64,000 nt of DNA, taken from the NCBI GenBank assembly GCA_013178005.1, contig JABLXL010000002.1:15220-79219 (forward strand), written 5' to 3'. The position numbers were made by a program, and so were the translations under genes. Each line of letters begins with the position of its first letter. Positions within the stretch are counted from its first letter, which is position 1. The DNA is from Actinomycetota bacterium (GTDB taxonomy: Bacteria; Actinomycetota; Geothermincolia; Geothermincolales; RBG-13-55-18). The notes beneath the pieces are model-generated. The model had not been told where the DNA came from, did no database searches, and saw nothing but the letters and a program-made list of their open reading frames with translations. Positions 12,193 to 42,682 of the stretch are shown here, piece after piece.

Positions 12193-12473
12193 GCTTGTCG
12201 CTGGCCGTAAGGATTTGAGGCATCGGAGCTGCGGCTCGTGCGGGTGCGGGGTATTATTGAAGCTCGCACTATGGAAAAACCCGCGTGGTCGAACATATTG
12301 CTTTATGGCTTGGAAGGAAAACCGTTGAAGCGTCTCCGATAATCACTAAATGTTGCAGAAAGAGGCGACGCCGCCCGCCGGCGATCCCGTTGCGCCTCAA
12401 GGGTTTGTCCCCGGCTTGTCGAAGAAAAAGGGAGCCGGGTAGAGGGGCGTTGACGGAGGTGTTCACCGGCGTG

Positions 12474-14783: not shown

Positions 14784-15067
14784 GGACGGACCAGGTTCCG
14801 AGGATGGGCACGGAAAGGGAGTCAGTGCGGATGGCCTGCGAAACGAAGCCCTGGAACCGGGGATTTCCGGCATCGGGACGGGAACCGGCCGCCGGGCGGG
14901 GCGTATCGCCCCTTGGGGCCGGTGGAGGGCGTAACCCGCGCCGGTTCGGAGGCGATGTTACAATGGGGACAACGGGCGAGGCGAAGGATTAGTTCGTGGA
15001 GGGGTAGAATAAACCAGAGGGAAGGGAGTTTTTCCGGGCACGGTTGGCATGGTTAAAGGAGGTTGCA

Positions 15068-16252
15068 ATGAAGGGATTGGCCAGCAAGATACTCATCGCG
15101 CTGGGCATCGTTCTCATCCTGGCGGCCATACTGTGGTGGGCCATCGCCGTCAACTCGCTGGTGAAGATCCCCGATGATTTGGATTCTACCAGCAAGTACG
15201 AGGGGGAGATGACCTACTACGTCAATCCAACCACCCACGAGCCGCTGCCGGAGGGCGAGGAGATGAAGTTGCCTATGAAGGTGGAGCGCAGGGTGTCCTC
15301 GGTGGCGGATGAATACGATTCGTCCACCGCGGTTCTCAAGGAGGAGGTAACGGTGGAGGTGGGGGGCCTGAAGAACCCCCCCGGCGGCCTGGAGTCCATA
15401 TACGTGCTCGACCGCAAGGGCTCGGAGAACCTCAACGACGAGCGCGCCTACGATTTCAAGGCCGGCAACCGCGTCAACCGCGAGGGGAGCTACTACCCAC
15501 TCCTTCCCTTTGATACCTCCAAGGACGAGGCATACAAGATATGGAAAGGGGAGATCGGGGAAGCGTCGGATTCCGAGTTCATCGAGGAAGTGGAGTCTTT
15601 CGGCGTCACCGTTTACAACTTCAAGGGCAGCGCCACCCTGGAGGACAAGAAGGAGGTCGTGCCGGCTTATATCGAGTTGAACGGCTTGCCGTCCGAGGTG
15701 ACCTTCGAGGAACTGAAGCCCCGGTTGCAGGCCCTGGGGGTGGACGTGGACGGGCTGCTCGCCCTGGCCCAACAGCGCCTCTCGGCCGAGGACCTGCAGA
15801 GCCTCAACGCCGCCCTTCAGGAGAAGATACCCATTAAATACTACTGGACCTACGACATAGAGACCTCCGTGGAGCCCAAGACCGGCGCGCCGGTCAACCT
15901 CTACAAGGACGTCGAGGCCATGTACATGGAGGTGGACACCTCGAAGCTGATGGGGGTATTCACCATCCTCGCCAAGTACTCCAGCGACCCCGTGCTGGGT
16001 CCGGTCCTCACGCAGCTCATGTCGCTCCAGGGCCAGTTGGGGGAGGCGAAGCCGCAGAAGGTCCTGGAGTACAGTATTGCCCAGACAGAGGAGACGGTGA
16101 AATCGGCTATCGATGATTCCAAGGACGCCGCCTCGAAGATCAACCTGGTCAAGGTCTACATACCCTGGGCATTGCTCATAGTGGGCGCCCTGCTCCTCAT
16201 CATCGGCTTGCTTATGGGGGGCGGCGAGGTCCCGGAACCCGCGGGGGAATGA
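15068..16252 (+). CDS. DUF3068/PorA-like membrane protein (N- and C-terminal TM anchors)
   Basis: An AAAGGAGG RBS precedes the start. An N-terminal TM (ILIALGIVLILAAILWWAIAV) and a C-terminal TM (ALLIVGALLLIIGLLMGG) flank an extracytoplasmic domain. This family is typical of Actinobacteria. Confidence 0.5.
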   Translation: MKGLASKILIALGIVLILAAILWWAIAVNSLVKIPDDLDSTSKYEGEMTYYVNPTTHEPLPEGEEMKLPMKVERRVSSVADEYDSSTAVLKEEVTVEVGGLKNPPGGLESIYVLDRKGSENLNDERAYDFKAGNRVNREGSYYPLLPFDTSKDEAYKIWKGEIGEASDSEFIEEVESFGVTVYNFKGSATLEDKKEVVPAYIELNGLPSEVTFEELKPRLQALGVDVDGLLALAQQRLSAEDLQSLNAALQEKIPIKYYWTYDIETSVEPKTGAPVNLYKDVEAMYMEVDTSKLMGVFTILAKYSSDPVLGPVLTQLMSLQGQLGEAKPQKVLEYSIAQTEETVKSAIDDSKDAASKINLVKVYIPWALLIVGALLLIIGLLMGGGEVPEPAGE

Positions 16253-16930: not shown

Positions 16931-18139
16931 ATGGCAAGGCGTAGGTTGAGCAACTGGGAGAAGGCCAAATCCTTCCTGCTGCCGAAGAGGGGCCTGATGC
17001 GCTGGGCGCTCATCGTTTTGGGATGTGTGCTCGGCCTGATGGTCCTCGCTTCGTCCATCATGGTTTACGCGGACGCCCGTCACCGGGGGGAGATGTTCCC
17101 CAACACCACCGTCCTGGGCGTCGACGTCACCGGGATGACCCGGGAGGAGGCGGTTGAGGCGGTGACCGAACAGGCGGTAAAGCCCCTTATGATGCCCCTC
17201 ACCCTGCAATTTCGAGGCGAGCAGTGGGTTCTGGATCCCAAGGAGCTGGGGGTTGACGTTGACGTGGAGGGCCTGGTGCAGCGCGCATACGACGAGGGAT
17301 GGAACAGGTCGCCTTTCGAGCGCGCGTTCAGGCGTGCGTTCAACCGGCCCAAGGAGATAAGAGTAAGCCTGGATTATTACATGGACAACGAGGCCCTCAA
17401 GGCGAAGCTCAACGCCGTGGCGGCGGACATCGACCAGGAGGTCAGGAACGCCTCACTGGATTTCGATTTCCAGACCGGCAAGCTCACCTTCCACCCCTCC
17501 CGGGACGGCCTGTGGATGGACGTGGACGCCACCATGGGGCTGGTACAGGAGGCGCTCTGCGGCGAGAACCGCGTCATCGAGCCGGTGGTGGCGGTGACCC
17601 CGCCCTCACTCTCCAGTGACGACGTTAAGACGGTGCTGGTGGTGGATGTCATGGGCAATACCCTGAGCTGGTACGATAAGGACACCCTGGTGAAGACCTA
17701 TTACGTGGCCACGGGCGAGCCCAAGTACCCCACTCCCCTGGGAAAGTTTTACATCATCCGCAAGGAGGAAAATCCGGTTTGGATCAACCCCAACGTGGAA
17801 TGGTCCAAGGACATGCCCCCGCGCATCGAGCCCGGTCCGGATAACCCACTGGGCGTGCGAGCCCTGGTGACCAGCGCGGCGGGAGGCACGGTGCTCATCC
17901 ACGGCACCAAGAACCTGGTGCCGGGGCTTTATTCGCACGGGTGTATACGCATGGCGAACTGGGCCATCCTGGAGTTGTTCGATCACGTGAACGTGGGCAC
18001 TCCCCTCTTCATCTGGACCTCCAAGCCGGTGCCGCCCCCGCCACCGGAGGAAGGCGCGCCGGTGGGACCCGAGGACCCGGGTCTGGGCACGGGCGGCGAG
18101 ACGCAGGGCGAACAGACCCAGAACGGCGGCAACCAGTAG
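16931..18139 (+). CDS. L,D-transpeptidase (YkuD domain) with N-terminal TM anchor
   Basis: The YkuD catalytic region ...TPLGKFYI...GTVLIHGT...YSHGCIRMANWAILELF has the conserved His/Cys. The C-terminal tail is Pro/Gly-rich. Confidence 0.85.
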   Translation: MARRRLSNWEKAKSFLLPKRGLMRWALIVLGCVLGLMVLASSIMVYADARHRGEMFPNTTVLGVDVTGMTREEAVEAVTEQAVKPLMMPLTLQFRGEQWVLDPKELGVDVDVEGLVQRAYDEGWNRSPFERAFRRAFNRPKEIRVSLDYYMDNEALKAKLNAVAADIDQEVRNASLDFDFQTGKLTFHPSRDGLWMDVDATMGLVQEALCGENRVIEPVVAVTPPSLSSDDVKTVLVVDVMGNTLSWYDKDTLVKTYYVATGEPKYPTPLGKFYIIRKEENPVWINPNVEWSKDMPPRIEPGPDNPLGVRALVTSAAGGTVLIHGTKNLVPGLYSHGCIRMANWAILELFDHVNVGTPLFIWTSKPVPPPPPEEGAPVGPEDPGLGTGGETQGEQTQNGGNQ

Positions 18140-22400: not shown

Positions 22401-24899
22401 ATGGCTTTTTTCGCGCGGCTCTGCAGGGACCATGCCGTGGCGGTGGTACTCGTCTGCCTCATCGTCACCTTGCCGGTGGCGGTGGGCATCTCCTTCCTCG
22501 AGGTAAGGGCGGGGCAGAAGGACCTCATACCCAGTAAATACGAGACCTCACGCACGCTGCGCCAGGTCAACGAGCTCTTCGGCGGCACCACCATGGAAAC
22601 CCCCATGGTGGAAAGCGATTCTCTGCTCGCCTACCCCATGATCAAGAAATTCCTCCTCTTGGAGGACGAGATGGCGGAGGCGATAGGCGACAATAACTAC
22701 GTCTACATGGAGCACTACCTCACCGCCTTCGCGCGCAACGCACTCGAGGAGGCGAAGAAGCAGTACGGCCCCCTTGTGAGCGATATCGCCACCATACTCA
22801 AGTTCGGGGAGGGGACGCAGGTGCCCGATCCGGCCGACCCTTCGCGGAGCAAGCCCTTTGAGGAGGTCATCGAGGACGGCGTTGCCCAGTACCTCTCCAA
22901 CCCCGTGGCCAGCAAGTGGACGGTGGAGAAAAAAGGCCAGGCGCTGCTCTCCGAGGACGGGAGGTATGCGCAGATCATCATCAAGATCAACCCGGACCTC
23001 GATTCGCCCCAGCGCAAGGCCCTGGCGACCAGGATGGAGGATTTCTTCCACGCCTATTTCGAGGGAGGGGAGGCGCCGGCCACCGTTTACGTGAGCGGCG
23101 ACCCCTCCATCGACAAGGACCTGGAGAACTACGTCTATTCCAGCACCTGGCTGCTGGCGGTTCTCGCGCTCATCGTGCTGGTCACCCTGCTCTTCATCAC
23201 CTTCCAGAGGTTGACCGACGTGGTCTTACCCCTGGCGGTGATCGTGCTCTCCACCATATGGATCTACGGCCTCATGGGGTGGGTGGGTTACCCGTTCACG
23301 GTGATCTCGGCCATCATCGGTCCCCTGGTGCTGGGGATAAGCCTGGGGAACGTGGTCTACATGATGGGGCGCTTCTACGAGGAGTTCGGCATCGAGGGCC
23401 GTCCCCGGGAGGCGGCGTACAGGTCCGTGATCACCGTGGGAGTGGCCGTCTTCCTCGCCTGTATCACCACCGTGTTCGGTTTCACCTCTTTCCTCCTCTC
23501 CGATTTCGATATCCTGCGGGAGTTCGGGATCATGTCCGGGGTGGGCATAGCGGTTTGCTTCCTGTTCAGCGTGACCTTCCTGCCCGCCCTCATGATCATG
23601 CGCGAGGAGAGGAGGCAGCGCAGGGGATACACGGCCCCCCGTGGGGTGGAGATATTCTCTCCCAGCAATAACCGGCGCATCGACCGCGGCCTGGGCGGCC
23701 TCGCCTCCCTCTCCCAGCACCGCCCCGGCGCGGTGGTGGTGGTGTACGGCTTCATCGTGCTCATCTGCGTCATGGGCGCCTTCCGCCTCACCACCACCCC
23801 GGACCTGCGGGCGCTCGCGCCCCAGGACATCCCCTCGCTGCAGGCGCAGTACCTGCAGGAATCGATCTTCGGCGGAGTGCAGCAGGACGTCATCCTCCTC
23901 ACGGGAGACGTCATGGAGCCCCGCGCCCTGGCGGCCATGATAAAGTTCCAGGAGAAGATCTCCGCCACGCCTTATTTCAGCGAAAATGGAAGCTCAAGCC
24001 TGGGGGAGCTCCTGCGCGATTACCGCGTCGAGATGGGAAAGGCCGGTCCCGAGGACGGCCCGGAGGCCGCGCTTCCCGCTACCAAGGCCGAGGCGGAGGA
24101 GACGCTGGCGGAGCTTGAATCGCTCATGGGGTCCCAGGACGGGAAGCTTGTCTCCGGGGACCACCGCGCGGCCCTCATCTCCATTTTCAGCGAAGGAGCC
24201 AAGAGCAACCGGGAGATGATGGACAAGGACCGCATCCTGACCGAGGCCGCCGAGGAGGCCTTCGGCGCCACCGCTTTGAGCTGGCGAGTGGGGGGCATCA
24301 CTCCGCTCACGGCCGACATGCTGGGGAATTTGGTACCCACTCAGGTCTGGACGGCCGTCCTCGCCCTGTGTCTCTCGGCGCTGGTGCTGGTGTTGATCTT
24401 CCGCTCCCTGACCTTCGGGCTCGCCACCCTCTCGGTGCTGGTCGCGGGGATAGCGGTGGAGCTCGGCTTTCTGTCCCTCATGGGGTGGACCCTGGACATG
24501 ATGACCGTGCTCATATCCTCCCTCATCATCGGCATGGGCATCGACTACGGGATACACATCACCCATCGCTTCATAGAGGAATACGAGCCCGGGGAGGTCA
24601 GCGTGGCGGACGCTTTAAGGTCCTGCGTGACCAGGGTGGGAAAGCCGCTCCTGGCCAGCGCCGTCTCCACGGCGGGCGCCTTCCTGGTGGTGTCCTTTTC
24701 GCGCATGGCGCCCATACGCCGCTTCAGCCTGGTTACGGCGCTTTCGCTCCTGGCGTCCCTTGCAGCGAGCCTGCTGGTGCTTCCCTCCATCATCACCTTG
24801 ATCGCCAGGCGCCACCTGCTGGTGAGGGAGGGGGCGCCCTCGGAGGCGCACGACCTCACCCCCGCGGGGGCGGACGCCGCGGGAGGCGCCAAGGGCTAA
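22401..24899 (+). CDS. MMPL/RND-superfamily transporter (two 6-TM bundles with large periplasmic loops)
   Basis: The 832-aa protein has a duplicated MMPL/SSD-like TM architecture. A GGGAGGAAGG RBS precedes the start. Confidence 0.85.
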   Translation: MAFFARLCRDHAVAVVLVCLIVTLPVAVGISFLEVRAGQKDLIPSKYETSRTLRQVNELFGGTTMETPMVESDSLLAYPMIKKFLLLEDEMAEAIGDNNYVYMEHYLTAFARNALEEAKKQYGPLVSDIATILKFGEGTQVPDPADPSRSKPFEEVIEDGVAQYLSNPVASKWTVEKKGQALLSEDGRYAQIIIKINPDLDSPQRKALATRMEDFFHAYFEGGEAPATVYVSGDPSIDKDLENYVYSSTWLLAVLALIVLVTLLFITFQRLTDVVLPLAVIVLSTIWIYGLMGWVGYPFTVISAIIGPLVLGISLGNVVYMMGRFYEEFGIEGRPREAAYRSVITVGVAVFLACITTVFGFTSFLLSDFDILREFGIMSGVGIAVCFLFSVTFLPALMIMREERRQRRGYTAPRGVEIFSPSNNRRIDRGLGGLASLSQHRPGAVVVVYGFIVLICVMGAFRLTTTPDLRALAPQDIPSLQAQYLQESIFGGVQQDVILLTGDVMEPRALAAMIKFQEKISATPYFSENGSSSLGELLRDYRVEMGKAGPEDGPEAALPATKAEAEETLAELESLMGSQDGKLVSGDHRAALISIFSEGAKSNREMMDKDRILTEAAEEAFGATALSWRVGGITPLTADMLGNLVPTQVWTAVLALCLSALVLVLIFRSLTFGLATLSVLVAGIAVELGFLSLMGWTLDMMTVLISSLIIGMGIDYGIHITHRFIEEYEPGEVSVADALRSCVTRVGKPLLASAVSTAGAFLVVSFSRMAPIRRFSLVTALSLLASLAASLLVLPSIITLIARRHLLVREGAPSEAHDLTPAGADAAGGAKG

Positions 24900-31515: not shown

Positions 31516-31723
31516 CTCCGCGTGGTCAGCGGGGTTATCTACCTCGGTCGGGAACGCGAAAAGCCGGCGTGGTTCGCGGTCGTTCAGGACAGGCCAAAAC
31601 CGAAACGTTGAGTAAGGGCAACGCACGGCGCGTCCGTGGCGCCTTGCCATGATGCCGGCCTTTGGGCGCGGAAGCCAACGGTTGCCTTTTGTCCCTGGAG
31701 GGATAGACATAGCGGGAGGTTGC

Positions 31724-32506
31724 ATGGAGTTCAAGTACCTGTTGGTGGAGACGGACGGCGAGGGCATCGCCACCATACGGCTCAACCGTCCCGAGGCCAG
31801 GAACGCCCTCAACCTGGAGCTCATCGCCGAGCTGGGAGAGGCGGCGGACATGCTGGCCAGGGACGAGGCCGTGCGGGCGGTGATCGTTACAGGCGGCGAG
31901 GAGAACTTCGCGGCCGGAGGCGACATCAAGGAGATGTCGGGCAAGTACGCGCCCGATATGCTGAACGCGTACGGGGCCGATCTTTCCGGTTTCGAGAAGA
32001 TCGAGCGCATACCCAAGCCGGTGATCGCCGCGGTGAGCGGCTACGCCCTGGGCGGAGGCACGGAGCTCGCCCTGGTGTGCGACATGATCGTGGCCTCGGA
32101 GACGGCCGTCTTCGGCATGCCGGAGATCACCCTGGGCATAATCCCTGGCGCTGGGGGCACCCAGAGGCTCCCCCGCCTCGTAGGGCCCAACCGGGCCAAG
32201 GAGATGATCTTCACCGGGTCCTTCTACGACGCCCGGGCATGCCTGGAGATGGGCCTGGTGAACAAGGTGGTGCCGGTGGAGGAGCTCATGACGGAGGCCA
32301 GGGAGCTGGCGAGGCGATGCATCCGCAACGGGGCCGTGGCGCTGGCCTGCGCCAAGGCGTGCGTAAACGAGGGGATGAACCTCGACCTCTACTCCGGGCT
32401 GGCATACGAGCGGAAGTGCTTTTCCCTGCTCTTCTCCACCGAGGACCAGAAGGAGGGCATGGCCGCCTTCAAGGAGAAGCGCAAGCCGGAGTTCAAGGGC
32501 CGCTGA
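31724..32506 (+). CDS. short-chain enoyl-CoA hydratase (crotonase, Crt-like)
   Basis: MEFKYLLVETDGEGIATIRLNRPEARNALN...AAVSGYALGGGTELALVCD... A GGGAGG RBS precedes the start. The long track ORF in this region is a read-through artefact of a different frame. Confidence 0.9.
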   Translation: MEFKYLLVETDGEGIATIRLNRPEARNALNLELIAELGEAADMLARDEAVRAVIVTGGEENFAAGGDIKEMSGKYAPDMLNAYGADLSGFEKIERIPKPVIAAVSGYALGGGTELALVCDMIVASETAVFGMPEITLGIIPGAGGTQRLPRLVGPNRAKEMIFTGSFYDARACLEMGLVNKVVPVEELMTEARELARRCIRNGAVALACAKACVNEGMNLDLYSGLAYERKCFSLLFSTEDQKEGMAAFKEKRKPEFKGR

Positions 32507-32583
32507 ACGCGCGGCGGAGCCTGAAGGAACAAACCCAAGGCGCCCCTTTGCCTTATCCGTATGTTCGAAGGGAGGAACACCAC

Positions 32584-33726
32584 GTGATCTCGTTTGAGTT
32601 GAGCGAGGAGCAGAAGGCCATCACCAAGGTGGCCCACGAGTTCGCCGAGAAGGAGATCCGCCCCGTGGCGGCGGAATACGACGAGGAGGAAAAGTACCCC
32701 GAGCAATTCATCGAAAAGGCCTTCAAGGCCGGCATGACCTACCTGTACGTTCCCGAGGAATACGGCGGCCAGGGGATGGATTTCCTCACCGCCTGCCTGG
32801 TCAACGAGGAGCTCTCCTGGGGATGCTGCGGTTTTGCCACCATCCTGGGGGCTAACGGCCTGGGGGTCACCCCGCTCCTGGTTGCGGGCACGGAGGAACA
32901 GAAGGAGAAGTACCTCTCGGACCTAACCTCCCGTCCCTCGCTGGCCGCCATGGCGCTCACCGAGCCCGATGCCGGGTCGGATGCGGCGGGGGTGAAGACC
33001 AGCGCGGTGCGGGATGGGGATGTATACGTGCTCAACGGCACCAAGTGCTTCATCTCCAACGGCGGCATCGCCGACCTCACCACCGTTTACGCCGTCACCG
33101 ACCCCTCCAAGGGAGTGCGCGGTCTCTCCTGTTTCCTGGTCCCCAAGGGGAACCCCGGCATCAGCGGGGGCAAGAAGGAGCGCAAGATGGGGGTGCGCGC
33201 CTCGGTCACCTCGGAGGTCATCCTCTCCGACTGCCGCGTGCCGGTCGAGGACCGGCTGGGCGAGGAGGGGGAGGGCTTCAAGATCGCCATGAAGACCCTG
33301 GACAAGGCGAGGGTGAACGTGGCATCGAATTCGGTGGGCATCGCCCGCGCCGCCTTCGAGGCGGCGGTGGATTACGCCAAGCAGAGGGTGCAGTTCGGCC
33401 GTCCCATCGCCGAGAACCAGGCCATCCAGTTCATGCTTGCGGACATGTCCATGGAAATCGAGGCCGCCAGGCTCATGTACATGAAGGCCGCATGGCTGGA
33501 GACCCAGGGGGCGAACTTCACCCGCGAGGCGGCCTACGCCAAGACCTTCTGTTCGGACATGGCCATGCGCGTGACCACCGACGTGGTGCAGGTCTTCGGC
33601 GGGTACGGGTACATGCGCGACTACCCGGTGGAGAAGTACATGCGCGACGCCAAGATAAACCAGATCTGGGACGGCACCAACCAGATACAGCGGATCGTGA
33701 TGGCCCGCAGCATCCTGGGAAAATGA
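32584..33726 (+). CDS. acyl-CoA dehydrogenase (butyryl-CoA dehydrogenase-like)
   Basis: GTG start after a GAAGGGAGGA RBS. The three ACAD domains are present and the C-terminus ends ...IYEGTNQIQ-like (IWDGTNQIQRIVMARSILGK). Confidence 0.9.
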   Translation: MISFELSEEQKAITKVAHEFAEKEIRPVAAEYDEEEKYPEQFIEKAFKAGMTYLYVPEEYGGQGMDFLTACLVNEELSWGCCGFATILGANGLGVTPLLVAGTEEQKEKYLSDLTSRPSLAAMALTEPDAGSDAAGVKTSAVRDGDVYVLNGTKCFISNGGIADLTTVYAVTDPSKGVRGLSCFLVPKGNPGISGGKKERKMGVRASVTSEVILSDCRVPVEDRLGEEGEGFKIAMKTLDKARVNVASNSVGIARAAFEAAVDYAKQRVQFGRPIAENQAIQFMLADMSMEIEAARLMYMKAAWLETQGANFTREAAYAKTFCSDMAMRVTTDVVQVFGGYGYMRDYPVEKYMRDAKINQIWDGTNQIQRIVMARSILGK

Positions 33727-33932
33727 CCGGGTCCGCGCACGGGCGGTCCCCGTCGGCCCGGGAGTCCTTGACGGGCGGGAAGAGTTGCGCACATTATGAT
33801 GCATGTGAGCCGGGCAGCAGCCCGGCGGCATGGTCCGCGGCGCCCCGCGGATGAGATGCGCGGGGCGCGCGAGAGTGAGCAGACAGGGAGGGTTCTCCAC
33901 GGAGAAACGGATGAGGCAAGAGGAGGTTGAGC

Positions 33933-35087
33933 ATGGACTTTGAACTCTCTCAGGAGCAGAAGGCCTTCTTCAAGGAGGTCAAGGAGTTCGCGGAAAAGGA
34001 GATCGCGCCCTTCACGGAGGAATACGACCGCAACAGCGAGTTCTTCTGGGATGGCTGGAAAAAGATGGGAGCAATGGGCCTCCTGGGCCTTCCCTTCCCC
34101 GAGGAGTACGGAGGGTCCGACGCGGGGGCCCTGGACACCGCCATCGCCATGGATGCCTTCGCGGCGGGGGGAGGGGACGCCGGCGTGTCGCTTTCCTGGG
34201 GTGCCCATACCATCATCGGGGGCGTGCCCATCTGGGTGATGGGAAACGAGGAACAGAAGAAGAAGTACCTCCCCGGAATGTGCAGCGGCGAGAAGGTGAG
34301 CTGCTTCGGGCTCACCGAGCCGGACGCCGGTTCCGACGCCGCTTCCCTGAAGACCACCGCGGTGCGGGACGGCGACGAGTACGTCATCAACGGCTCCAAG
34401 ATGTTCATCACCAACGGCCCCATCTGCGACCTTTGCATCGTGATGGCGGTGACCGACAAGGAAAAGGGCGGCGCGGGCATCAGCGCCTTCATCGTGGAGC
34501 GCGACACCCCAGGCTTCGAGGTCAGCCGTGAGCTGGACAAGATGGGCAACCGCACCTCTCCCACCGCCGAGCTGGCCTTCAACGACTGCCGCGTCCCGGC
34601 GGAGAACCTGCTGGGAGCGGAAGGCGAGGGTTTCTACGGGGTGGGCAAGGCCACCCTGGAGTGGGAGCGTGCCATCATGGTGGCCCCGGCGGTGGGCGGC
34701 ATGGAGTGCAACATCAACCGCTGTATCGAGTACGCCAAGGAGAGAAAGCAGTTCGGCAGGCCCATCGGCAAGTTCCAGGCGGTGGCCTTCAAGATCGCGG
34801 AGATGAAGTGCCTTCTTGACGCGGCTCGCCTCCTGGTCTACCGCGTGGCCTGGATGAAGGACCAGGGCATCCCGGCCATGATGGAGGCCTGCGTGTGCAA
34901 GCTCTTCGTCACCGAGAGCGCTTTCAAGGTGGCCAACGAGGCGGTGCAGATCTTCGGAGGCTACGGCTACATCCGCGAGTACCCGGTAGAGCGCACCCTC
35001 AGAGACGCCAAGCTGGGAACCATCGGGGCCGGCACCTCGGAGATCCAGAAGATGATCATCAGCCGGCTGCTCATGGGCAAGTTCTAG
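33933..35087 (+). CDS. acyl-CoA dehydrogenase (second paralog)
   Basis: A GAGGAGG RBS precedes the start. ACAD domains are present and the C-terminus ends ...GAGTSEIQKMIISRLLMGKF. Confidence 0.9.
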   Translation: MDFELSQEQKAFFKEVKEFAEKEIAPFTEEYDRNSEFFWDGWKKMGAMGLLGLPFPEEYGGSDAGALDTAIAMDAFAAGGGDAGVSLSWGAHTIIGGVPIWVMGNEEQKKKYLPGMCSGEKVSCFGLTEPDAGSDAASLKTTAVRDGDEYVINGSKMFITNGPICDLCIVMAVTDKEKGGAGISAFIVERDTPGFEVSRELDKMGNRTSPTAELAFNDCRVPAENLLGAEGEGFYGVGKATLEWERAIMVAPAVGGMECNINRCIEYAKERKQFGRPIGKFQAVAFKIAEMKCLLDAARLLVYRVAWMKDQGIPAMMEACVCKLFVTESAFKVANEAVQIFGGYGYIREYPVERTLRDAKLGTIGAGTSEIQKMIISRLLMGKF

Positions 35088-35117
35088 CGACCGGGCGAGG
35101 GCGGGGGTTCGCCGGGC

Positions 35118-35396
35118 GTGCGCGTGACGGTGCGTCTCACCGGGATCATCCGGCACCATGCCGGGGTCAAGGAAAAGACGTACGAGCTACCCGAGGGAGC
35201 GGTCGCCGCGGATCTGCTGCACCGCGTGGGAGAGGACCTCGGCCACCGCATGCCGCGCCAGTTGTGGGACGCGGACGAAGGGCGCTTCCACCCCATAATC
35301 AAGGTCTCACGCCGCGGGACCCCGTTCCTCGAGGATGGCGACCCCTTGAGGGACGGGGACGAGGTGTATGTCATCTCCCGCATGGCGGGCGGGTAG
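35118..35396 (+). CDS. MoaD/ThiS-like ubiquitin-fold small protein ending in Gly-Gly
   Basis: The 92-aa protein has the C-terminus ...YVISRMAGG followed by a stop. The size and GG terminus fit sulfur-carrier proteins. Confidence 0.55.
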   Translation: MRVTVRLTGIIRHHAGVKEKTYELPEGAVAADLLHRVGEDLGHRMPRQLWDADEGRFHPIIKVSRRGTPFLEDGDPLRDGDEVYVISRMAGG

Positions 35397-35556
35397 GGAA
35401 CCCCGGCGCCCCGCCCCGGCGGAATCGCCGGGCCGGGAGGCGAAGGCGTCAAGGCGCCGCCGGCTTTCCGGACGGCGCGAAGCGTCCATGTGTGCGGCGC
35501 GAAGCCGGAGGATCCGTACGGAGATGTCCTGGGAGGGGTACGGAGCGTAGGGAGGC

Positions 35557-36933
35557 GTGATGAGCGATTACGACGCGATCGTGGTGGGCGCGGGCATCGC
35601 CGGCCTGGGGGTGGCCACGCAGTTGCAGCAGGCGGGCAAGAAGACCTTGCTCCTGGAGATGTACCCCAAGGCGGGGGGGCGCATGCAGTCCTACGACCTG
35701 CCCGGAGGGTACCGCGTGGATATCGGGCTGCACATGATCGAGATGGGCAAGAAGGGGTATTGTCACGAGCTGGGCACGCGCGTGGGCAAGGAGTTCGAGT
35801 GGGCCGCTTTCTCCGTCACCCTGGACCTCTACGAGGGGGGGAAGTGGCAGGACATGCAGACCTTCATCCAGCTCACCGACGAGGAGAAGACGAGCTTCAT
35901 AGAGCTCATGAAGGGCATCGCGGAGATGGGCGAGCCCGACTTCAAGGCATGGGACAGCCGCTCCTTCGACGAATGGCTGGACCGCAACGGCCTCACCGGC
36001 AGCCTGCGCGAGGTATGGGAGAACATGAGCATGATCATGACCACCATACCCGACGCCAGGGAGCAATCGGCGGGGGAGTGCCTATACATCGCCAGGGAGG
36101 CGTTGATTAAGGGCAGGGCGGTGCTCATCGCCGCCTATCCCCGGGGAGGCATGTGGGGCGTGATCGGTCCCCTGGTGGACGCGTTCCAGGAAATGGGAGG
36201 AGAGCTCAGGCTAGGAGCCCGCGTGGAGCAGGTGGTTTTCGAGGGCAGGAAGGTCGCGGGCGTGAAGGTTGCCCGCAGGGGATCCAACCCCATCGCCAAG
36301 GAATGGCGCTTCGTCTCCACCGACCTGGTTACCGCCCCCCTGGTGGTGCTGGCCCTTCCCATCTGGCACCTGGACAAGGTGCTTGATTTCGACCGCCGTT
36401 ACTCCCCGCTGCCGGGTTGGTGGTTGAAGCGCATCGAGGACATCAGGGGGGAGAGGACGGGGCTGCTGGGCTACATCATCGCCACCCGCAGGCCTCTGTA
36501 CGAGCGCACGGTGTTCATGTCCGCGCTGAAGTCGCCGCGCACCGGGCTGCCCCTGCAGGCCTTCGCGCCCACCGCCTTCGATCCCGGGGTGGCCCCGCCC
36601 GACCGTTACCTGCTGGTCACCGACAACGTCGCCGAGCCCTGGGAGCTGGAGGACAAGTTCAACCTGGCGCGGCTCATGGAGCAGCACTGGGAGGACGTGA
36701 AGGAACTCTACTCCTTCGAGGACGGGGAGGTTGAGTTCGCCGTTCCCTACTACACAACCGGGTGCGACGGCCTGGCGCGCAAGCCGGGACTAACCGGGGA
36801 TTTCAAACCGGACGTGCAGGCGCCCTCCGTGGACGGCCTCTTCTTCGCGGGCGATACCTACCTGGGCAGGGGGCTGGCCATAGAGGGGGCGTCACGGTCC
36901 GCCATTCTCTGCGCCGAGCGCATCCTGGGCTGA
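35557..36933 (+). CDS. NAD(P)/FAD-dependent oxidoreductase (amine-oxidase/phytoene-desaturase-like fold)
   Basis: DYDAIVVGAGIAGLGVATQLQQAGKKTLLLE is a dinucleotide-binding motif. The C-terminus has ...FFAGDTY..G.. typical of the FAD fold. Confidence 0.8.
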   Translation: MMSDYDAIVVGAGIAGLGVATQLQQAGKKTLLLEMYPKAGGRMQSYDLPGGYRVDIGLHMIEMGKKGYCHELGTRVGKEFEWAAFSVTLDLYEGGKWQDMQTFIQLTDEEKTSFIELMKGIAEMGEPDFKAWDSRSFDEWLDRNGLTGSLREVWENMSMIMTTIPDAREQSAGECLYIAREALIKGRAVLIAAYPRGGMWGVIGPLVDAFQEMGGELRLGARVEQVVFEGRKVAGVKVARRGSNPIAKEWRFVSTDLVTAPLVVLALPIWHLDKVLDFDRRYSPLPGWWLKRIEDIRGERTGLLGYIIATRRPLYERTVFMSALKSPRTGLPLQAFAPTAFDPGVAPPDRYLLVTDNVAEPWELEDKFNLARLMEQHWEDVKELYSFEDGEVEFAVPYYTTGCDGLARKPGLTGDFKPDVQAPSVDGLFFAGDTYLGRGLAIEGASRSAILCAERILG

Positions 36934-37032
36934 GGGCCGCGCGCGGAGCGCCCTCCCGTTCCGGCCGCGCGTGCTATCATGGGGAGCGTGTTCCCGAGTT
37001 CCTGCGAGAGGAAAGGAGATGCCTCGAAGGTC

Positions 37033-38529
37033 ATGTCCCCCGGGAGGCGTAAGCTGCGCGTGTTGATCGTCTCTGATGCCTGGGGATTCGGGCTCATGGA
37101 GACCAGGCCGCATCCCCTGTGGCAGGTCCGCTACTGGGCCATCCGCAACAAGGCCCTCCTGGTGCCCGAGTACGGGGCCATGTACATCGCCGCCTTCCTC
37201 AAGGGAAGGGGCTTGGACGTCGAGGTCGTCAACCTGGTAGCCGACGTCTTCGAGGACGAGTCCTGGTTCAGGGAGGTGGAGGAGGGGTTGCCGGAACACG
37301 CCCCGTCCACCGCTCCCATCGGGAGCGGGGAGGCGATGACGCGCGCGCGGGAGAACCTGGAGGCAAGGGTCAAGAGTGCACAGCCGGACGTCATCCTCTT
37401 CCCCATCTCCATCTATTACATAGCCTTGCACGCCCGCGAGATGCTGAAGCGCTTGCGGGAGCTGGCGCCCGGAGCGGCCCTGGTGGCCGGCGGTGTGTAT
37501 TCCACCATGCATCCCCAGGAGATCATGGACGACGGAGCCGCGGACTTCGTAGTGCGGGGAGAGGGGGAGTGGACCGCCCTGGAGCTGCTGCGGGCCCTGG
37601 AGGAAAGGGGATCGAACGCGGACTTCTCCGGCATCGCCGGCCTCAGCTGGCGAGACCCCGACGGAGGGGTGGTGCATAACCCGGACAGGGAGCGGGAGAA
37701 AAACATCGACCTCTTCCCCCACATCTATACCGTCTCCGAGGAGTTCGCCATCGGTAACCGCTACCGCATCCTGAAATCCCTGAACCCCCTGGACGACTAC
37801 ATCCCGGGAGGCGGGTTCCTCACCTCCCGCGGCTGCCCGGAGGAATGCACCTTCTGCCTCGACCCCGCGGTCTGGAAGAGGAAGACGCGGTTCCATTCCC
37901 CGGGGTACGTGCGCGAGGTTCTGGATTACTGCTGGGGAAATTTCACTGCGGGCGAGAGGAGCTTCTACTTCGGTGACGCCACCTTCGCCCTCAACCGCCC
38001 GCGACTACGGGCGCTCCTGGAGACGGTCCGGGAGTTCCCCTTCACCTACCACATCCAGACGCGCGCCGATTCGCTCACCCCGGAGGTGCTGGAGGGCCTG
38101 CGGGAGAGCAACTTCGGGAGCGTGGCCATCGGGGCGGAATCGTTCGATGACCGCATCCTGCGGGAGGTGGTGAAGAAGCGCACCACCAGGGAGGAGATCC
38201 TCGGCGCCGTGAGGGCGGTGAAAGCCCACGGCATGACCCCCATCCTCACCTTCATCGCCGGCCTGCCGGGGGAGAGCCGGGAGAGCATGGAGCGCACGGT
38301 GGAGATCCTGCGCCAGGAGGGGATTACCGAGGCGACCTTCTTCCCCCTGGTGGTCTTCCGGGGCACCGCGCTTTACCGCACCTTCCTGGAGACCTTCGGC
38401 GAGGAGGAGCGGGAACGCCTGCGCCTCAATCCCTGGTCGGAGGAATTCTGTTTCGCGGGCGAGGAGTTCTCCTCCATGCAGGAGCTCATCGACTATACCC
38501 AGACGCTCAACGACGCCATCCGCGCCTGA
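37033..38529 (+). CDS. B12-binding-domain radical SAM enzyme
   Basis: The N-terminal KLRVLIVSDAWG... is a Rossmann-like B12-binding domain. The radical SAM motif is CPEECTFC. The start is ambiguous between 36979 and 37033. Confidence 0.85.
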   Translation: MSPGRRKLRVLIVSDAWGFGLMETRPHPLWQVRYWAIRNKALLVPEYGAMYIAAFLKGRGLDVEVVNLVADVFEDESWFREVEEGLPEHAPSTAPIGSGEAMTRARENLEARVKSAQPDVILFPISIYYIALHAREMLKRLRELAPGAALVAGGVYSTMHPQEIMDDGAADFVVRGEGEWTALELLRALEERGSNADFSGIAGLSWRDPDGGVVHNPDREREKNIDLFPHIYTVSEEFAIGNRYRILKSLNPLDDYIPGGGFLTSRGCPEECTFCLDPAVWKRKTRFHSPGYVREVLDYCWGNFTAGERSFYFGDATFALNRPRLRALLETVREFPFTYHIQTRADSLTPEVLEGLRESNFGSVAIGAESFDDRILREVVKKRTTREEILGAVRAVKAHGMTPILTFIAGLPGESRESMERTVEILRQEGITEATFFPLVVFRGTALYRTFLETFGEEERERLRLNPWSEEFCFAGEEFSSMQELIDYTQTLNDAIRA

Positions 38530-38655
38530 GTCCGCGCGCCCCCTCGACCCACAGCTTGATGCGCGGGCGAGGAGTTCTCCTCCATGCAGGAGCTCATCGA
38601 CTATACCCAGACGCTCAACGACGCCATCCGCGCCTGAGTCCGCGCGCCCCCTCGA
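38442..38655. repeat. tandem duplication (~95 bp, 2 identical copies, ~25-bp spacer) of the 3' end of the radical-SAM gene
   Basis: 38442-38535 and 38561-38655 are identical. Both copies include the last ~27 codons plus the stop and 20 nt downstream. Confidence 0.85.
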
Positions 38656-38741
38656 TTGGCGCGCTTTCGCGGGTGAGGATATTATAGGAGTAGAACACGG
38701 AGCACGTTGCCGAGTTTACGGGAAGGACGCTTCGCCGGGGA

Positions 38742-39830
38742 GTGAGGGAAATGAACACCAAGGAGTTGAGGACCTTCGCGCGCAGCAGGATCTTCTCCAC
38801 TTTCGAGGAAAGGGCCGCCAAGGGGGGTTTCGACCGCGGTTTGTGGAGGGAGATGGCGGAGTCAGGGGTCGTCGGGATGGCCCTGGACAAACGGTACGGC
38901 GGCGGGGGAGCCGGGATGGGGGAATTCGTGGAATGCGTGTCCCTTCTCGCCGGCGAGGGCCTTGACCTGGGGCTGACCCTGAGCCTGATCGATCATGTCG
39001 TGCTCTGTGCCTACCCCCTGCAGGTCTTCGGCTCGAAGTGGTTGAAGGAGCGCTACCTGCCCCCGCTGTGCAAGGGCGACTGCATAGGGGCGGCGGCGGT
39101 TTCGGAGGATGACGGCGGCGGGGACCCGAAACGCATGCGGAGCTCGGCGGCGCGCGCGGGAGACGGCTATACCCTGAGCGGGGTCAAAGGACCGGTGACC
39201 AACGCCCCCGTGGCCGACCTCTTCCTGGTGGTGGCGGCCACCGATCCCGGCGCGGGGAAGGACGGGCTTTCCGCTTTCCTGGTGGAGAGGGCGGCTGGCG
39301 TGCGGGTGGAGGAGCTGGGGCTGGGATTTCTTCCCACCTCTCCCCACGGGCGCGTGATCCTGGACGGGGTGCGGGTCTCCGCGGATCACCTCCTGGGGGA
39401 AGAGGGGTGGGGGCACGAGAAGATCTCCCGCTCTCTCTTCATCTGGGAGAGGAGCGCCTTGATCCCGGTAGTGGTCTCGTACCTCGAGCGCTGGCATCAC
39501 CTGGTGGTTTCCAGCCTGGACCCCGAGGGCATCTCGCCCGATTTGCGCACTCTCCTGGCCCGCAGGAAGGTGGAGCTCACCGCGTACCGCGCCCTTGGTT
39601 CCCGACTCCTGGAACTCACCTTCGGCGAGGCGGAGAACGGGCGCGAGCGCCTGGAGCTCCTGCTCTTTTTCGGCAAAACCCTGCCGGAGTGGGTGGAGAG
39701 CATGCGCGCCGCGGTGGAGGAGGCCAGGGTGCCGCTGGACGAGACCCTGCGGGCCATGGACCGTGACCTGCGCCTCCTGGAGGTGGGCGGCTCACTTCTC
39801 GACTGGCAGTTCCAGAAACTCCTTTTCTGA
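38742..39830 (+). CDS. acyl-CoA dehydrogenase family protein (third paralog, divergent)
   Basis: The ACAD N- and middle-domain pattern is present (...GDPKRMRSSAARAGDGYTLSGVKGPVTNA...). The C-terminal domain is shorter and less conserved. Confidence 0.7.
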   Translation: MREMNTKELRTFARSRIFSTFEERAAKGGFDRGLWREMAESGVVGMALDKRYGGGGAGMGEFVECVSLLAGEGLDLGLTLSLIDHVVLCAYPLQVFGSKWLKERYLPPLCKGDCIGAAAVSEDDGGGDPKRMRSSAARAGDGYTLSGVKGPVTNAPVADLFLVVAATDPGAGKDGLSAFLVERAAGVRVEELGLGFLPTSPHGRVILDGVRVSADHLLGEEGWGHEKISRSLFIWERSALIPVVVSYLERWHHLVVSSLDPEGISPDLRTLLARRKVELTAYRALGSRLLELTFGEAENGRERLELLLFFGKTLPEWVESMRAAVEEARVPLDETLRAMDRDLRLLEVGGSLLDWQFQKLLF

Positions 39831-39841
39831 ACCTGCATGGT

Positions 39842-40060
39842 GCGGAATCGTCCCGGCGCGCTTCCCGGTCTTAAGAAGTCCCTGAAGACTTCCCCGTCAT
39901 CCTGACAGAGCAAGCAAGTTCGGCGGGGAAAAGAGTCGGTCCTCCGGGCGTTCAATCCGTGAACCATGTTGCCGGGTCCGTTCTCCGCATGCGGAATCGT
40001 CCCGGGGCGCTCTCCGGGTTGAAGAAATCCCGGGAGCCCTCCCAGTCATACTTACAAAGC
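39842..40060. repeat. imperfect direct repeat (2 x ~80 bp) in the leader region of the glycyl-radical-enzyme gene
   Basis: tgcggaatcgtcccgg(c/g)gcgct(t/c)tccgg(t/g)(c)t(t)aagaa(g/a)tccc...agcaagcaa appears twice. Confidence 0.6.
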
Positions 40061-40282
40061 AAGCAAACAAGATAGTTGGGGAGGGAGAAGTATCCTACCG
40101 ATTAAGCCGGATTATACGGCGCTACGCTTGCCTTAACTTGGGTCAGGGAGCGCTTTTTGCTAACCTGTTAAGTGACGGGCGTCATTTCGCCACGGAGCGC
40201 GCGGATATATCCTGGCGACAGGAGCAGGCGTGTTCTTCGAGGCCGGGCGGGTCCGGCCGGAACCCTGGGAGGTGCGGAGAGG

Positions 40283-42682
40283 ATGAGGGAGAGCGAGGTC
40301 ATATCGCCCGAGCGGATATGGCGTGCGTCGGACAAGCTCACGCCGCGGGTGCGCAGGCTGCGCGAGGAATATTATTCCATCGAGGAAAGGCCGTACTTCC
40401 GCAACGAGGTCATGCCCTTCACCACCGGGACGGACTGGGACGTGGTGTGGTCCCCGGTGAACTGGGGCATCATCCCCGAGCTGGTGCCCTTCATGGGGGC
40501 TTTCTCCGAGTCGTTGCGCGCATCGGCCCGCGTGGTGGACCTGCCGGACGGCTTCTGGGGGCGTTCGCTGGTCATGCGGAAGGCCCTTTTCTTCCGGGAG
40601 GTATGCCGCCGCCACCTGCCGGTGCGTATCCTGGAGGGCGAGCTCATCGTGGGAGGCCAGTTCAACACCGCGCTTTCCAGGTGCCTGAACCGTCGTGAGG
40701 CCAGGAAATGGAAGAAATCGGTGGATAAGTGGTGGAAGCGGGCGGCGGAGATAAACGAGCTGGGCATCGGCAACGCCGGAGCGGTGCCGGGCCACCTCAT
40801 CCCGGATTATCCCCGCGTGCTCAAGTCCGGCTTCTCGGGCATCCGCGCGGAGCTCGCGGAGATGCTCGCGAAGGTCGATGACGAGGCCCACGCCGATTTC
40901 CTGCGTGCCCTCATGGAATGCTGCGATGCCGCGCGGGAGATCGCGGCGCGCTACGCGGAGGAGGCCGACAGGCTTGCGGAGTCGGAAGCGGACGCGGCCA
41001 GGGCGGAGGAGCTGCGCGAGATAGCGCGCATCTGCCGCAAGGTGCCCTGGGAGCCGGCGGAGACTTTCCACGAGGCACTGCAGGCGCTGTGGTTCACGCA
41101 CATGCTGGTCATGGCCGCGGAGTCCTATCCCGGGGCGGGGCTCTCCCACGGGCGCTTCGACCAGTACATGCTTCCCTATTACCGGGCCGACCTGGAGGCC
41201 GGGAGGCTCACGCGCGAGCGGGCTAAGGAACTGCTCCAGTGCTATTGGATAAAGCACAATTACGCCTATGACTTCCAGTGCCGGGTGATGAACAACCAGG
41301 GTATCAACTCCGGCTTCGGGCAGCTCATCACCATCGGGGGGATAAACGCGGACGGAAGCGACGCCTCCAACGAGCTCACCTGGCTGATCCTCGAGGTCAT
41401 CGAGGAGATGAACATGCTCGAGCCCAAGCCCAATATCAGGCTGCATCAGGGGACCCCGGAGCCGCTCCTGCGCAGGGTGGCGGAGATGATCTCCGGGGCG
41501 CAGGGCTCCCCCTTCCTCATGAACTTCGACGAGAACTCCATGCGCGGGCTCGCTTGGCAGGGTCTGCCCGAGGACCGCCTCTGGGATTATGCCCCCGTGG
41601 GATGCCTGGAGAACACTCTCCAGGGGGACGACCGGTCCGGCACCGTGGACGTCAACGTCAACCTGGCCAAGGCGGTGGAGCTGGTTTTCTTCCGCGGCCG
41701 GGACGCAGCAACCGGAAGGCGCATCGGGCCGGATACGGGCAGGGTGGAAGACCTTTCCACCTGGGAGGATTTCAAGGCCGCCTTCGAGGCCCAGATGAAG
41801 GCGCTCATGGACCACATGCTCTCCATCAGCGACGAGGCCGACCGCATCCGCTCCACCTGGGAGCCCACCCCCTACCTCTCTACCCTGGTGGGGGGTTGCG
41901 CGGAGAGCGGTAAGGACATCACCCAGGGAGGGGCGCGCCACAACTACATCACCGTGGAGGGCGTGGCCTTCGCCACCGCGGCGGATTCCCTGGCGGCGGT
42001 GAAGAAGCTGGTTTACGAGGACGGCAGGATCAAGATGGATGATCTTTCCAGGGCCATACGGGAGAACTTCGAGGGCCACGAGGCGCTGCGCCAGACCCTG
42101 ATCAACAAGGCCCCCAAGTACGGCAACGACGACGATTACGCCGACGAGGTGGCGCGATACCTCTCGCGGCTGTGGACGGTGATGGTCAGCGAGCGCGTGT
42201 CCCCGGCCACCGGTAGGAGATACCGCGCCGGTTACCTCTCGTGGAATTACTGGATAGCCTTCGCTCCCGGCACGGCGGCCACGCCCGACGGCAGGAGGAA
42301 GGGGACCTTCCTTTCCAACGCCATCGGCCCCGTGGACGGGACGTGCCACAACGGCCCCACGGCGGAGCTCCTCTCCGTGGGCAAGATGGGCCTGGAGACG
42401 GCGCCCAACGGCGCCTCCCACACCATGAGCTTCAGCCCTTCCATGCTGCGCGACGAGGAGCACGTGTCCAAGCTCATGGCCTTCCTGCGCGCCTACGGCG
42501 AGAAGGGAGGCACGGCGCTGCAGGTGAACGTCATCGACCCGGAGACCCTGCGCGAGGCGCAGCGCAGGCCCGAGGATTACCGCAACCTGCTGGTGCGCGT
42601 TACCGGATACAACGCGTATTTCGTCATGCTGGGCCGGGAGATGCAGGATGAGATCATCGCGAGGGAATCCCATGAGCTCTGA
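40283..42682 (+). CDS. glycyl radical enzyme (PFL2/dehydratase-eliminase-like subclass), substrate unknown
   Basis: The C-terminal glycyl-radical motif is RVTGYNAYFV. The catalytic-loop Cys is followed by Glu (VGCLEN), as in glycerol/propanediol/choline/hydroxyproline GRE eliminases. The protein is about 800 aa. An RBS (GGAGGTGCGGAGAGG) precedes the start. The co-located activase gene overlaps its 3' end. Confidence 0.9.
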   Translation: MRESEVISPERIWRASDKLTPRVRRLREEYYSIEERPYFRNEVMPFTTGTDWDVVWSPVNWGIIPELVPFMGAFSESLRASARVVDLPDGFWGRSLVMRKALFFREVCRRHLPVRILEGELIVGGQFNTALSRCLNRREARKWKKSVDKWWKRAAEINELGIGNAGAVPGHLIPDYPRVLKSGFSGIRAELAEMLAKVDDEAHADFLRALMECCDAAREIAARYAEEADRLAESEADAARAEELREIARICRKVPWEPAETFHEALQALWFTHMLVMAAESYPGAGLSHGRFDQYMLPYYRADLEAGRLTRERAKELLQCYWIKHNYAYDFQCRVMNNQGINSGFGQLITIGGINADGSDASNELTWLILEVIEEMNMLEPKPNIRLHQGTPEPLLRRVAEMISGAQGSPFLMNFDENSMRGLAWQGLPEDRLWDYAPVGCLENTLQGDDRSGTVDVNVNLAKAVELVFFRGRDAATGRRIGPDTGRVEDLSTWEDFKAAFEAQMKALMDHMLSISDEADRIRSTWEPTPYLSTLVGGCAESGKDITQGGARHNYITVEGVAFATAADSLAAVKKLVYEDGRIKMDDLSRAIRENFEGHEALRQTLINKAPKYGNDDDYADEVARYLSRLWTVMVSERVSPATGRRYRAGYLSWNYWIAFAPGTAATPDGRRKGTFLSNAIGPVDGTCHNGPTAELLSVGKMGLETAPNGASHTMSFSPSMLRDEEHVSKLMAFLRAYGEKGGTALQVNVIDPETLREAQRRPEDYRNLLVRVTGYNAYFVMLGREMQDEIIARESHEL

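Follow-up and report, generated by a model that had tools for sequence, protein, structure and literature searches.

The closest described relatives of the locus reported here are small sulfur-carrier proteins encoded beside tungsten aldehyde oxidoreductase (AOR) genes. MoaD genes have been described that are "strictly adjacent" to those for AOR, with a predicted function connected with the tungsten cofactor (Iyer, Burroughs & Aravind 2006; PMC1779556). The ThiS-like neighbor of Class I tungsten oxidoreductases was named WorX, with a function that is only predicted (Putumbaka et al. 2026; PMC13328260). In addition, the chuangxinmycin cluster combines the MoaD-family carrier CxnE with CxnA, a methyltransferase of the B12-dependent radical S-adenosylmethionine (SAM) type, and a remote MoeZ (PMC5925218). 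Here, we analyzed a window of 64,000 nucleotides (nt) (G000:C12:15220-79219) from a genome of the actinobacterial class Geothermincolia (G000; 97% complete, GC content of about 64%). The names borne by its homologues place this genome in the Geothermincolia/'Candidatus Solincola' group of Actinomycetota. In this window, genes for a 92-amino-acid (aa) protein ending in Gly-Gly, a flavoprotein, and a B12-binding radical SAM enzyme follow one another between acyl-CoA dehydrogenase genes. Comparison of the sequences suggests, with a probability of about 0.5, that the small protein is an orphaned WorX-type sulfur carrier which acts in trans and stands beside two unrelated enzymes.

The carrier gene (35118..35396, + strand) has a GTG start codon with a purine-rich stretch upstream, and its product ends in ISRMAGG directly before the stop codon. 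The residues A90, G91, and G92 were invariant across nine orthologues with identities down to 34%. Against the Pfam family ThiS (PF02597), the window protein scored 20.6 bits, slightly under the gathering cut-off of 22.5, and an orthologue (locus L018) scored 23.7 bits. A profile of the carrier family, which includes the canonical MoaD of G000, matched solved MoaD/SAMP-type proteins (1vjk, E = 4e-12). The AlphaFold2 model adopted a beta-grasp fold (mean predicted local distance difference test [pLDDT] score of 93.1, predicted TM score of 0.85), and its best Foldseek matches were SAMP1 (3po0, 4hro), HVO_2177, and MoaD (probability of 1.0). The description of a ubiquitin-fold protein ending exactly in Gly-Gly, which an earlier note on this DNA had made from the open reading frames, was thereby borne out. 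The protein shares its fold, its length class, and the C-terminal pattern LxDGDE...GG with MoaD of E. coli (1FM0) and P. furiosus (1VJK) and with SAMP1 of Haloferax volcanii (3PO0), but it differs from MoaD in being encoded outside the molybdenum cofactor (Moco) operon, and no MoaE partner was found for it. Most likely, the protein is a sulfur carrier of the MoaD/SAMP1 type, from a branch that is normally encoded right after an AOR gene.

This assignment to the AOR-linked branch came from the genomic contexts of the relatives. The comparison set consisted of 41 genomes of the class (G000 and 40 relatives, 30 of them of high quality), which were grouped into the family of the window (f1), other families (f2 to f5, f4 being Anoxymicrobiaceae-like), and genera such as g4, g6, and g9. 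In a wider profile search of 401 Actinomycetota genomes, the carrier was present in 24, nearly always in one copy per genome. The carriers of f4/f5 and of one more distant actinomycete (G069) lay directly after an AOR gene in all seven cases examined, and the f4/f5 operon has the order SCP2-FeADH-SCP2-AOR-carrier, in which FeADH denotes an iron-containing alcohol dehydrogenase. The window carrier resembles WorX and the AOR-linked MoaD proteins in its size of about 92 aa, its beta-grasp fold, its free C-terminal Gly-Gly, an E1-like activating enzyme encoded elsewhere or a few kilobases off, and sister-family orthologues that strictly follow an AOR/WOR gene. In contrast to these systems, the carriers of the window and of most of its order are detached from AOR and stand beside the flavoprotein and radical SAM genes. 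Because the window contains no AOR gene, it is by descent, and not by its current surroundings, that its carrier counts as a WorX protein.

The f1 carriers were 46-53% identical to the AOR-linked f5 carrier but only 34-43% identical to the radical SAM-linked f3 carriers, and the carriers therefore form one orthologous family and not two functional classes. Members of the family in the wider library were also 92-aa proteins. The C-terminal tails read Ser-Arg-Met/Leu-Ala-Gly-Gly in the group of the window and Phe-x-Leu-Ala-Gly-Gly or Pro-Pro-Val-Ala-Gly-Gly in AOR-adjacent relatives. The Ser-Arg tail was considered as a signature of a new partner and dropped, because the AOR-adjacent copy in genome G004 carries Ser-Arg too. 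One library member of the family, the 294-aa protein P0175, joins a beta-grasp domain of the WorX kind, in which ...IAGG is internal, to a molybdopterin-binding domain of the sulfite-oxidase type (PF00174, E = 3e-36).

Two genomes bear on how the carrier came to its present position. Contig C30 of G000 keeps an SCP2-FeADH-SCP2-AOR operon with 58-67% identity to the f4/f5 type and with no carrier after the AOR gene, and the only G000 homologue of the f4 carrier is the window gene. In G004, a fragmented FeADH-SCP2-AOR-carrier cassette (L019, G004:C28, ~12350-15700; the same record as L085) sits exactly between ACAD2, the acyl-CoA dehydrogenase gene upstream of the three genes, and the flavoprotein/radical SAM pair. 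The AOR gene of this cassette is divided between two frames, and a frameshift and an in-frame TAG disrupt the carrier gene. On the same contig, ACAD2, the flavoprotein gene, the radical SAM gene, the downstream acyl-CoA dehydrogenase-like gene ACAD3, and a glycyl radical enzyme (GRE) gene are intact, with decay confined to the cassette region. G004 is also without a C30-type AOR. This genome serves as a natural knock-out, in which the carrier decays with AOR and not with the radical SAM enzyme or the flavoprotein. Genus g6 keeps FeADH-SCP2-carrier-radical SAM. As a side observation on the C30 operon (G000:C30:14306-22489; L127), the SCP2-FeADH-SCP2-AOR genes are followed, after a gap of 610 nt, by a DUF35/ChsH2-OB gene, two thiolase-like genes, and another DUF35 gene. 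This operon resembles a gene set serving alcohol/aldehyde and side-chain cleavage in lipids or sterol-like substrates.

The simplest history would place an FeADH-SCP2-AOR-WorX cassette between ACAD2 and the flavoprotein/radical SAM pair, with later deletion down to the carrier in most lineages; the carrier would adjoin these two genes because the AOR cassette formerly occupied that spot. In the source genome, the ThiF/MoeB-type E1 encoded on contig C47 would adenylate the C-terminal Gly-Gly of the carrier, the adenylated end would then be converted to a thiocarboxylate, and the sulfur would go to the pterin (tungsten) cofactor of AORs encoded elsewhere, such as that of the C30 operon. The flavoprotein and the radical SAM enzyme would be separate enzymes of the surrounding lipid/acyl-CoA and GRE gene cluster, and the three genes would be predicted co-transcribed neighbors, not a three-step pathway. 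Since the carrier is taken as an orphaned AOR-type protein working in trans, the trio is best read as largely a synteny relic, as far as sequence comparison indicates. The earlier note had proposed that the trio could modify the pathway substrate or act in sulfur transfer. The comparative data did not support a single unit, given that the carrier belongs to the AOR branch and occupies the former place of an AOR cassette, that the G004 copy decays with AOR, and that the radical SAM gene occurs without the carrier in about half of the class. Sulfur transfer is still the likeliest chemistry of the small protein, probably for a pterin enzyme encoded elsewhere.

Next, possible partners of the carrier were searched for. 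No ThiF/E1 gene is present in the window, as the earlier note had stated for the vicinity of the carrier, and one clear ThiF-type E1 was found elsewhere in G000 (C47:13375-14220, 178.8 bits, no rhodanese domain detected). It lies about 6 kb from a pair formed by a 708-aa AOR and a second carrier of G000, a canonical MoaD (...PPVAGG) encoded directly after it on C47. Four clear AOR paralogues and a Moco operon with the order MoaA-MoaC-MOSC-MogA (G000:C2:10375-12999; L126) were found in G000. MoaE (PF02391), on the other hand, was detected in 0 of the 41 genomes of the class, G000 included, by a search that matched 11 of 14 reference genomes as a control. The absence of detectable MoaE limits how literally "MoaD-like" can be read, and a canonical MoaD/MoaE role was rejected on this basis. 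Its place in the Moco operon makes the MOSC protein a possible stand-in for MoaE in the conversion of cPMP to molybdopterin. A ThiS role in thiamin synthesis was likewise rejected, because no ThiG was found in G000 beyond weak partial TIM-barrel cross-matches, of which the one examined was an NMO-family protein, and because the flavoprotein is not ThiO. A JAMM/MPN+ peptidase (Prok-JAB, PF14464) was not found in G000, and a thioamide (YcaO/TfuA) route was rejected because no YcaO was found in that genome.

The radical SAM gene (36979..38529, + strand; 516 aa from the ATG at 36979) encodes a B12-binding (class B) enzyme, in agreement with the first annotation. Both its B12-binding domain (PF02310, 50.2 bits, cut-off of 32.1) and its Radical_SAM domain (PF04055, 81.5 bits, cut-off of 29.5) were detected, and the C-x3-C-x2-C motif (C264, C268, and C271) was invariant. 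Most orthologues are about 494 aa long, with the alignment starting near residue 23 of the window protein. The enzyme is encoded by a single-copy gene in 38 of the 41 genomes, with identities of 49-84%, and its tree tracks the species groups across the class except for one long-branch extra copy, which indicates an old, vertically inherited, class-wide gene. Its best sequence matches, with which it shares the class B architecture, were the models of HpnJ, BchE, and MgmA, the glutamine C-methyltransferase of methyl-coenzyme M reductase (9CCB), and MgmA was also its nearest solved relative (9ccb, E = 5e-19). However, no NCBIfam equivalog cut-off was reached, that of PhpK included (122 versus 577.6 bits for HpnJ, 99 versus 481 for BchE, and 89 versus 360 for TIGR04014, the MgmA model), and the locus offers no methyl-coenzyme M reductase, hopanoid, or bacteriochlorophyll context. 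A literature search combining Geothermincolia with radical SAM or glycyl radical returned nothing.

Between these two genes lies the flavoprotein gene (35557..36933, + strand; 458 aa). Translation probably begins at the ATG at 35560, and the Atlas sequence begins at residue 2. The product has a flavin adenine dinucleotide (FAD)-binding phytoene-desaturase/amine-oxidase fold, in line with the amine-oxidase fold proposed earlier, with a full-length match to PF01593 (E = 1.7e-26). Its structural model (pLDDT of 86) was closest to 3ka7, plant phytoene desaturase (5mog), and 3nrn, with TM scores of about 0.75-0.8. It shares the FAD Rossmann and substrate-domain fold with phytoene desaturase/CrtI, HpnE, and the archaeal flavoproteins 3KA7 and PF1083 (3NRN). 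Unlike the desaturases, it stayed under all NCBIfam equivalog cut-offs (69 versus 283 bits for HpnE and 57 versus 238 for crtI_fam), and no squalene/phytoene synthase (PF00494) was found in G000. A hopanoid or carotenoid reading, suggested by the best matches of the flavoprotein to HpnE and of the radical SAM enzyme to HpnJ, was rejected because the scores were far under the cut-offs and neither synthase was found. The flavoprotein may plausibly act on hydrophobic substrates other than carotenoids.

Several relatives of the flavoprotein were observed at other loci. Five further flavoproteins of the same fold are encoded on other G000 contigs, and the one that was compared shares 25% identity with the window protein. 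A distance of 2 kb separates a more distant member (G000:C47:9079-10482) from the AOR-MoaD pair. Related genomes encode closer paralogues, next to a second GRE with its activase (58% identity) and in the vicinity of another beta-oxidation set (46%). In these paralogue loci (L035, G027:C10, 9342-16969; L034, G012:C30), the second GRE has 990 aa and another flavoprotein of the same fold lies alongside.

The three genes were then compared across the relatives. The same gene order recurred in about 20 related genomes, and the arrangement is therefore not due to chance. The order carrier-flavoprotein-radical SAM is kept throughout f1 and in f3, so the three genes were found adjacent in two families, and the co-localization of the trio reported earlier extends beyond this genome. 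Neither of the two outcomes that the earlier note had named as refuting its reading, a small protein without the beta-grasp fold or a trio never co-localized in relatives, was thus obtained. In the f3 genus g9, the three genes are inverted as one block and moved away from the GRE genes. In genus g6 and family f2, the carrier gene abuts the radical SAM gene with no flavoprotein gene between them. The radical SAM gene occurs without carrier and flavoprotein neighbors in g4-type genomes, in f4, and in an outgroup clade. The presence of the genes is nested: all genomes with the flavoprotein have the carrier, and all genomes with the carrier have the radical SAM enzyme. The intergenic gaps in the trio loci are short (10-340 nt, same strand); with orthologue-based start sites, the carrier-radical SAM gaps were 10-227 nt, for which translational coupling is not claimed. 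No fused carrier-radical SAM form was present among the 150 best family representatives. One apparent carrier fusion (P0258) was rejected as a spurious immunoglobulin match, and a small GG-ending open reading frame upstream of an outgroup radical SAM gene (L110) was unlike MoaD and was judged to be a chance occurrence.

Several of these observations weigh against an orphaned AOR-type carrier. In every checkable f1-f3 genome, the carrier adjoins the radical SAM gene or is parted from it only by the flavoprotein gene, and the g9 inversion carried all three genes as one block. Three f3 genomes (G025-G027, 90-100% complete) have an intact carrier and no C30-type AOR at E = 1e-180, with other AOR paralogues possible. 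C30-type AOR was also found without this carrier in G003, G005, G033, and G036, indicating that the carrier is not strictly required. Furthermore, the lack of detectable MoaE in the class means that the canonical acceptor enzyme of a MoaD-type carrier is missing, and the pterin role of the carrier comes only from a published prediction. Taken together, a true partnership between the carrier and the radical SAM enzyme is considered unlikely, although far from negligible. One form of it would be re-use of the carrier. With the aid of a remote E1, its thiocarboxylate would supply the sulfur of a product (a small molecule, an acyl-CoA, or a lipid) that is made with the flavoprotein and the radical SAM enzyme. 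The flavoprotein would create an electrophile by oxidation or desaturation, and the radical SAM enzyme would methylate or rearrange, following the same logic as the pathways to chuangxinmycin and BE-7585A. The constant neighborhood of carrier and radical SAM gene throughout f1, f2, and f3, including the block inversion of three genes, agrees with re-use, as do the short same-strand gaps, the nested presence from flavoprotein through carrier to radical SAM enzyme, and the intact carriers of the f3 genomes without C30-type AOR. The chuangxinmycin system is a precedent, in that a MoaD-family carrier is clustered with a B12-radical SAM enzyme and the E1 is encoded elsewhere (PMC5925218). However, this cluster serves secondary metabolism and also encodes an aminotransferase, a cytochrome P450, and a JAMM peptidase, the last of which has no counterpart found in G000; its carrier has a capped Gly-Gly, its radical SAM enzyme is of a different subfamily, and the comparative data at the window locus argue against a shared pathway. 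In f4, in g4, and in the outgroup clade, the radical SAM enzyme has no such carrier with it, and the G004 carrier is a pseudogene beside an intact radical SAM gene and flavoprotein gene. There is no overall sequence shift between radical SAM-linked and AOR-linked carriers, the Ser-Arg tail being present in the AOR-adjacent G004 copy as well. The absence of a carrier-radical SAM fusion among the 150 best family members also speaks against re-use, and no sulfur-transfer enzyme (ThiG-, BexX-, or CysM-type gene) was found in the cluster. We regard re-use as doubtful. That the carrier works together with the class-wide B12-radical SAM enzyme, either as a sulfur donor for radical chemistry on an acyl/lipid substrate or in a MoaE-independent step of the tungsten-pterin cofactor, is a tentative proposal and rather improbable.

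A role of both the carrier and the radical SAM enzyme in support of the AORs is much less probable; the two, and perhaps the flavoprotein, would mature or alter the AOR protein itself or its tungsten-pterin cofactor. Such a role agrees with the failure to find MoaE in any of the 41 genomes despite MoaA-MoaC-MOSC-MogA and several AOR paralogues, with the presence of the radical SAM enzyme in 38 of the 41 genomes and with the order AOR-carrier-flavoprotein-radical SAM in G004. Yet G003 has two AOR copies and no radical SAM enzyme, the radical SAM gene of G004 is intact beside a decaying AOR gene, and among the radical SAM loci examined only that of G004 has an AOR gene within its flanks (about 8-10 kb). 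For the missing step, the MOSC protein encoded in the Moco operon would be the more obvious choice, and molybdopterin synthesis is not known to require radical chemistry. A similarly slim chance is given to the small protein being a SAMP-like ubiquitin-like modifier, or a non-catalytic subunit or chaperone of a neighboring enzyme, instead of a sulfur donor. The structure that matches it best is that of SAMP1, a protein that serves Haloferax as carrier and as modifier, a ThiF/UbaA-type E1 is present in G000, and the Gly-Gly end is conserved; however, no Prok-JAB/JAMM peptidase was found in that genome, the contexts of the carrier family are all pterin enzymes, and a free Gly-Gly end would be superfluous in a structural subunit.

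The trio lies inside one long same-strand gene run, as determined from the open reading frames of the window and domain searches. The run begins with genes for a zinc-dependent alcohol dehydrogenase, an adenine-deaminase-like amidohydrolase, a 3-hydroxyacyl-CoA dehydrogenase, two enoyl-CoA hydratases, and the acyl-CoA dehydrogenases ACAD1 and ACAD2, and continues with the carrier, flavoprotein, radical SAM enzyme, ACAD3, GRE, GRE activase, and a PNPOx-like protein. The flanking genes belong to the acyl-CoA dehydrogenase family, as first described: ACAD2 (33927..35087, + strand) is a complete acyl-CoA dehydrogenase, and ACAD3 (38742..39830, + strand) is a divergent acyl-CoA-dehydrogenase-like protein in which only the N-terminal and middle domains were detected. 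ACAD3 is present in 22 of 23 other genomes of the family of the window and in one more distant genome. The three genes themselves are not canonical butyrate enzymes, a point on which the first description was right. Farther upstream, the longest open reading frame at 31636-33726 (696 aa) is a composite of two genes that lie in different frames: an enoyl-CoA hydratase gene occupies 31649-32506 in another frame, and the start of an acyl-CoA dehydrogenase gene is near 32590.

At the end of the radical SAM gene, a tandem duplication (38449..38655) consists of two 99-nt copies (38449-38547 and 38557-38655) that are 98% identical and spaced by 108 nt. The duplicated segment comprises the last 81 nt of the gene with its stop codon and 18 nt past the stop; it could be genuine or an assembly artefact. 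A promoter-like site was noted at 38656-38685, directly after the second copy. Riboswitch control of the locus by Moco or B12 was rejected, because no Rfam match was found anywhere in the window at the gathering score and nothing relevant was found at E <= 1 in 33500-40400. The window of this anaerobic, Rnf-bearing actinobacterium also encodes a PorA-type porin (15044-16252), an MMPL transporter (22401-24899), and an L,D-transpeptidase (16931-18139), a possible sign that this class has an outer layer of the corynebacterial type.

In many anaerobes, tungsten aldehyde oxidoreductases come with WorX-type carriers, and this lineage provides natural experiments on their function: a detached carrier that has long been kept intact, the joint decay of carrier and AOR in G004, and a class with AORs, MoaA/MoaC, and MoaD-like carriers in which no MoaE was found. 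The locus also illustrates that three genes conserved together can be the scar of a deletion instead of a pathway. In addition, the analysis flags a conserved, uncharacterized B12-radical SAM enzyme in this class, and a phytoene-desaturase-like flavoprotein family that is expanded in anaerobes without carotenoid or squalene synthase. If cooperation between the carrier and the radical SAM enzyme were true, the latter would become the first example of a radical SAM enzyme with a demonstrated dependence on a sulfur-carrier protein.

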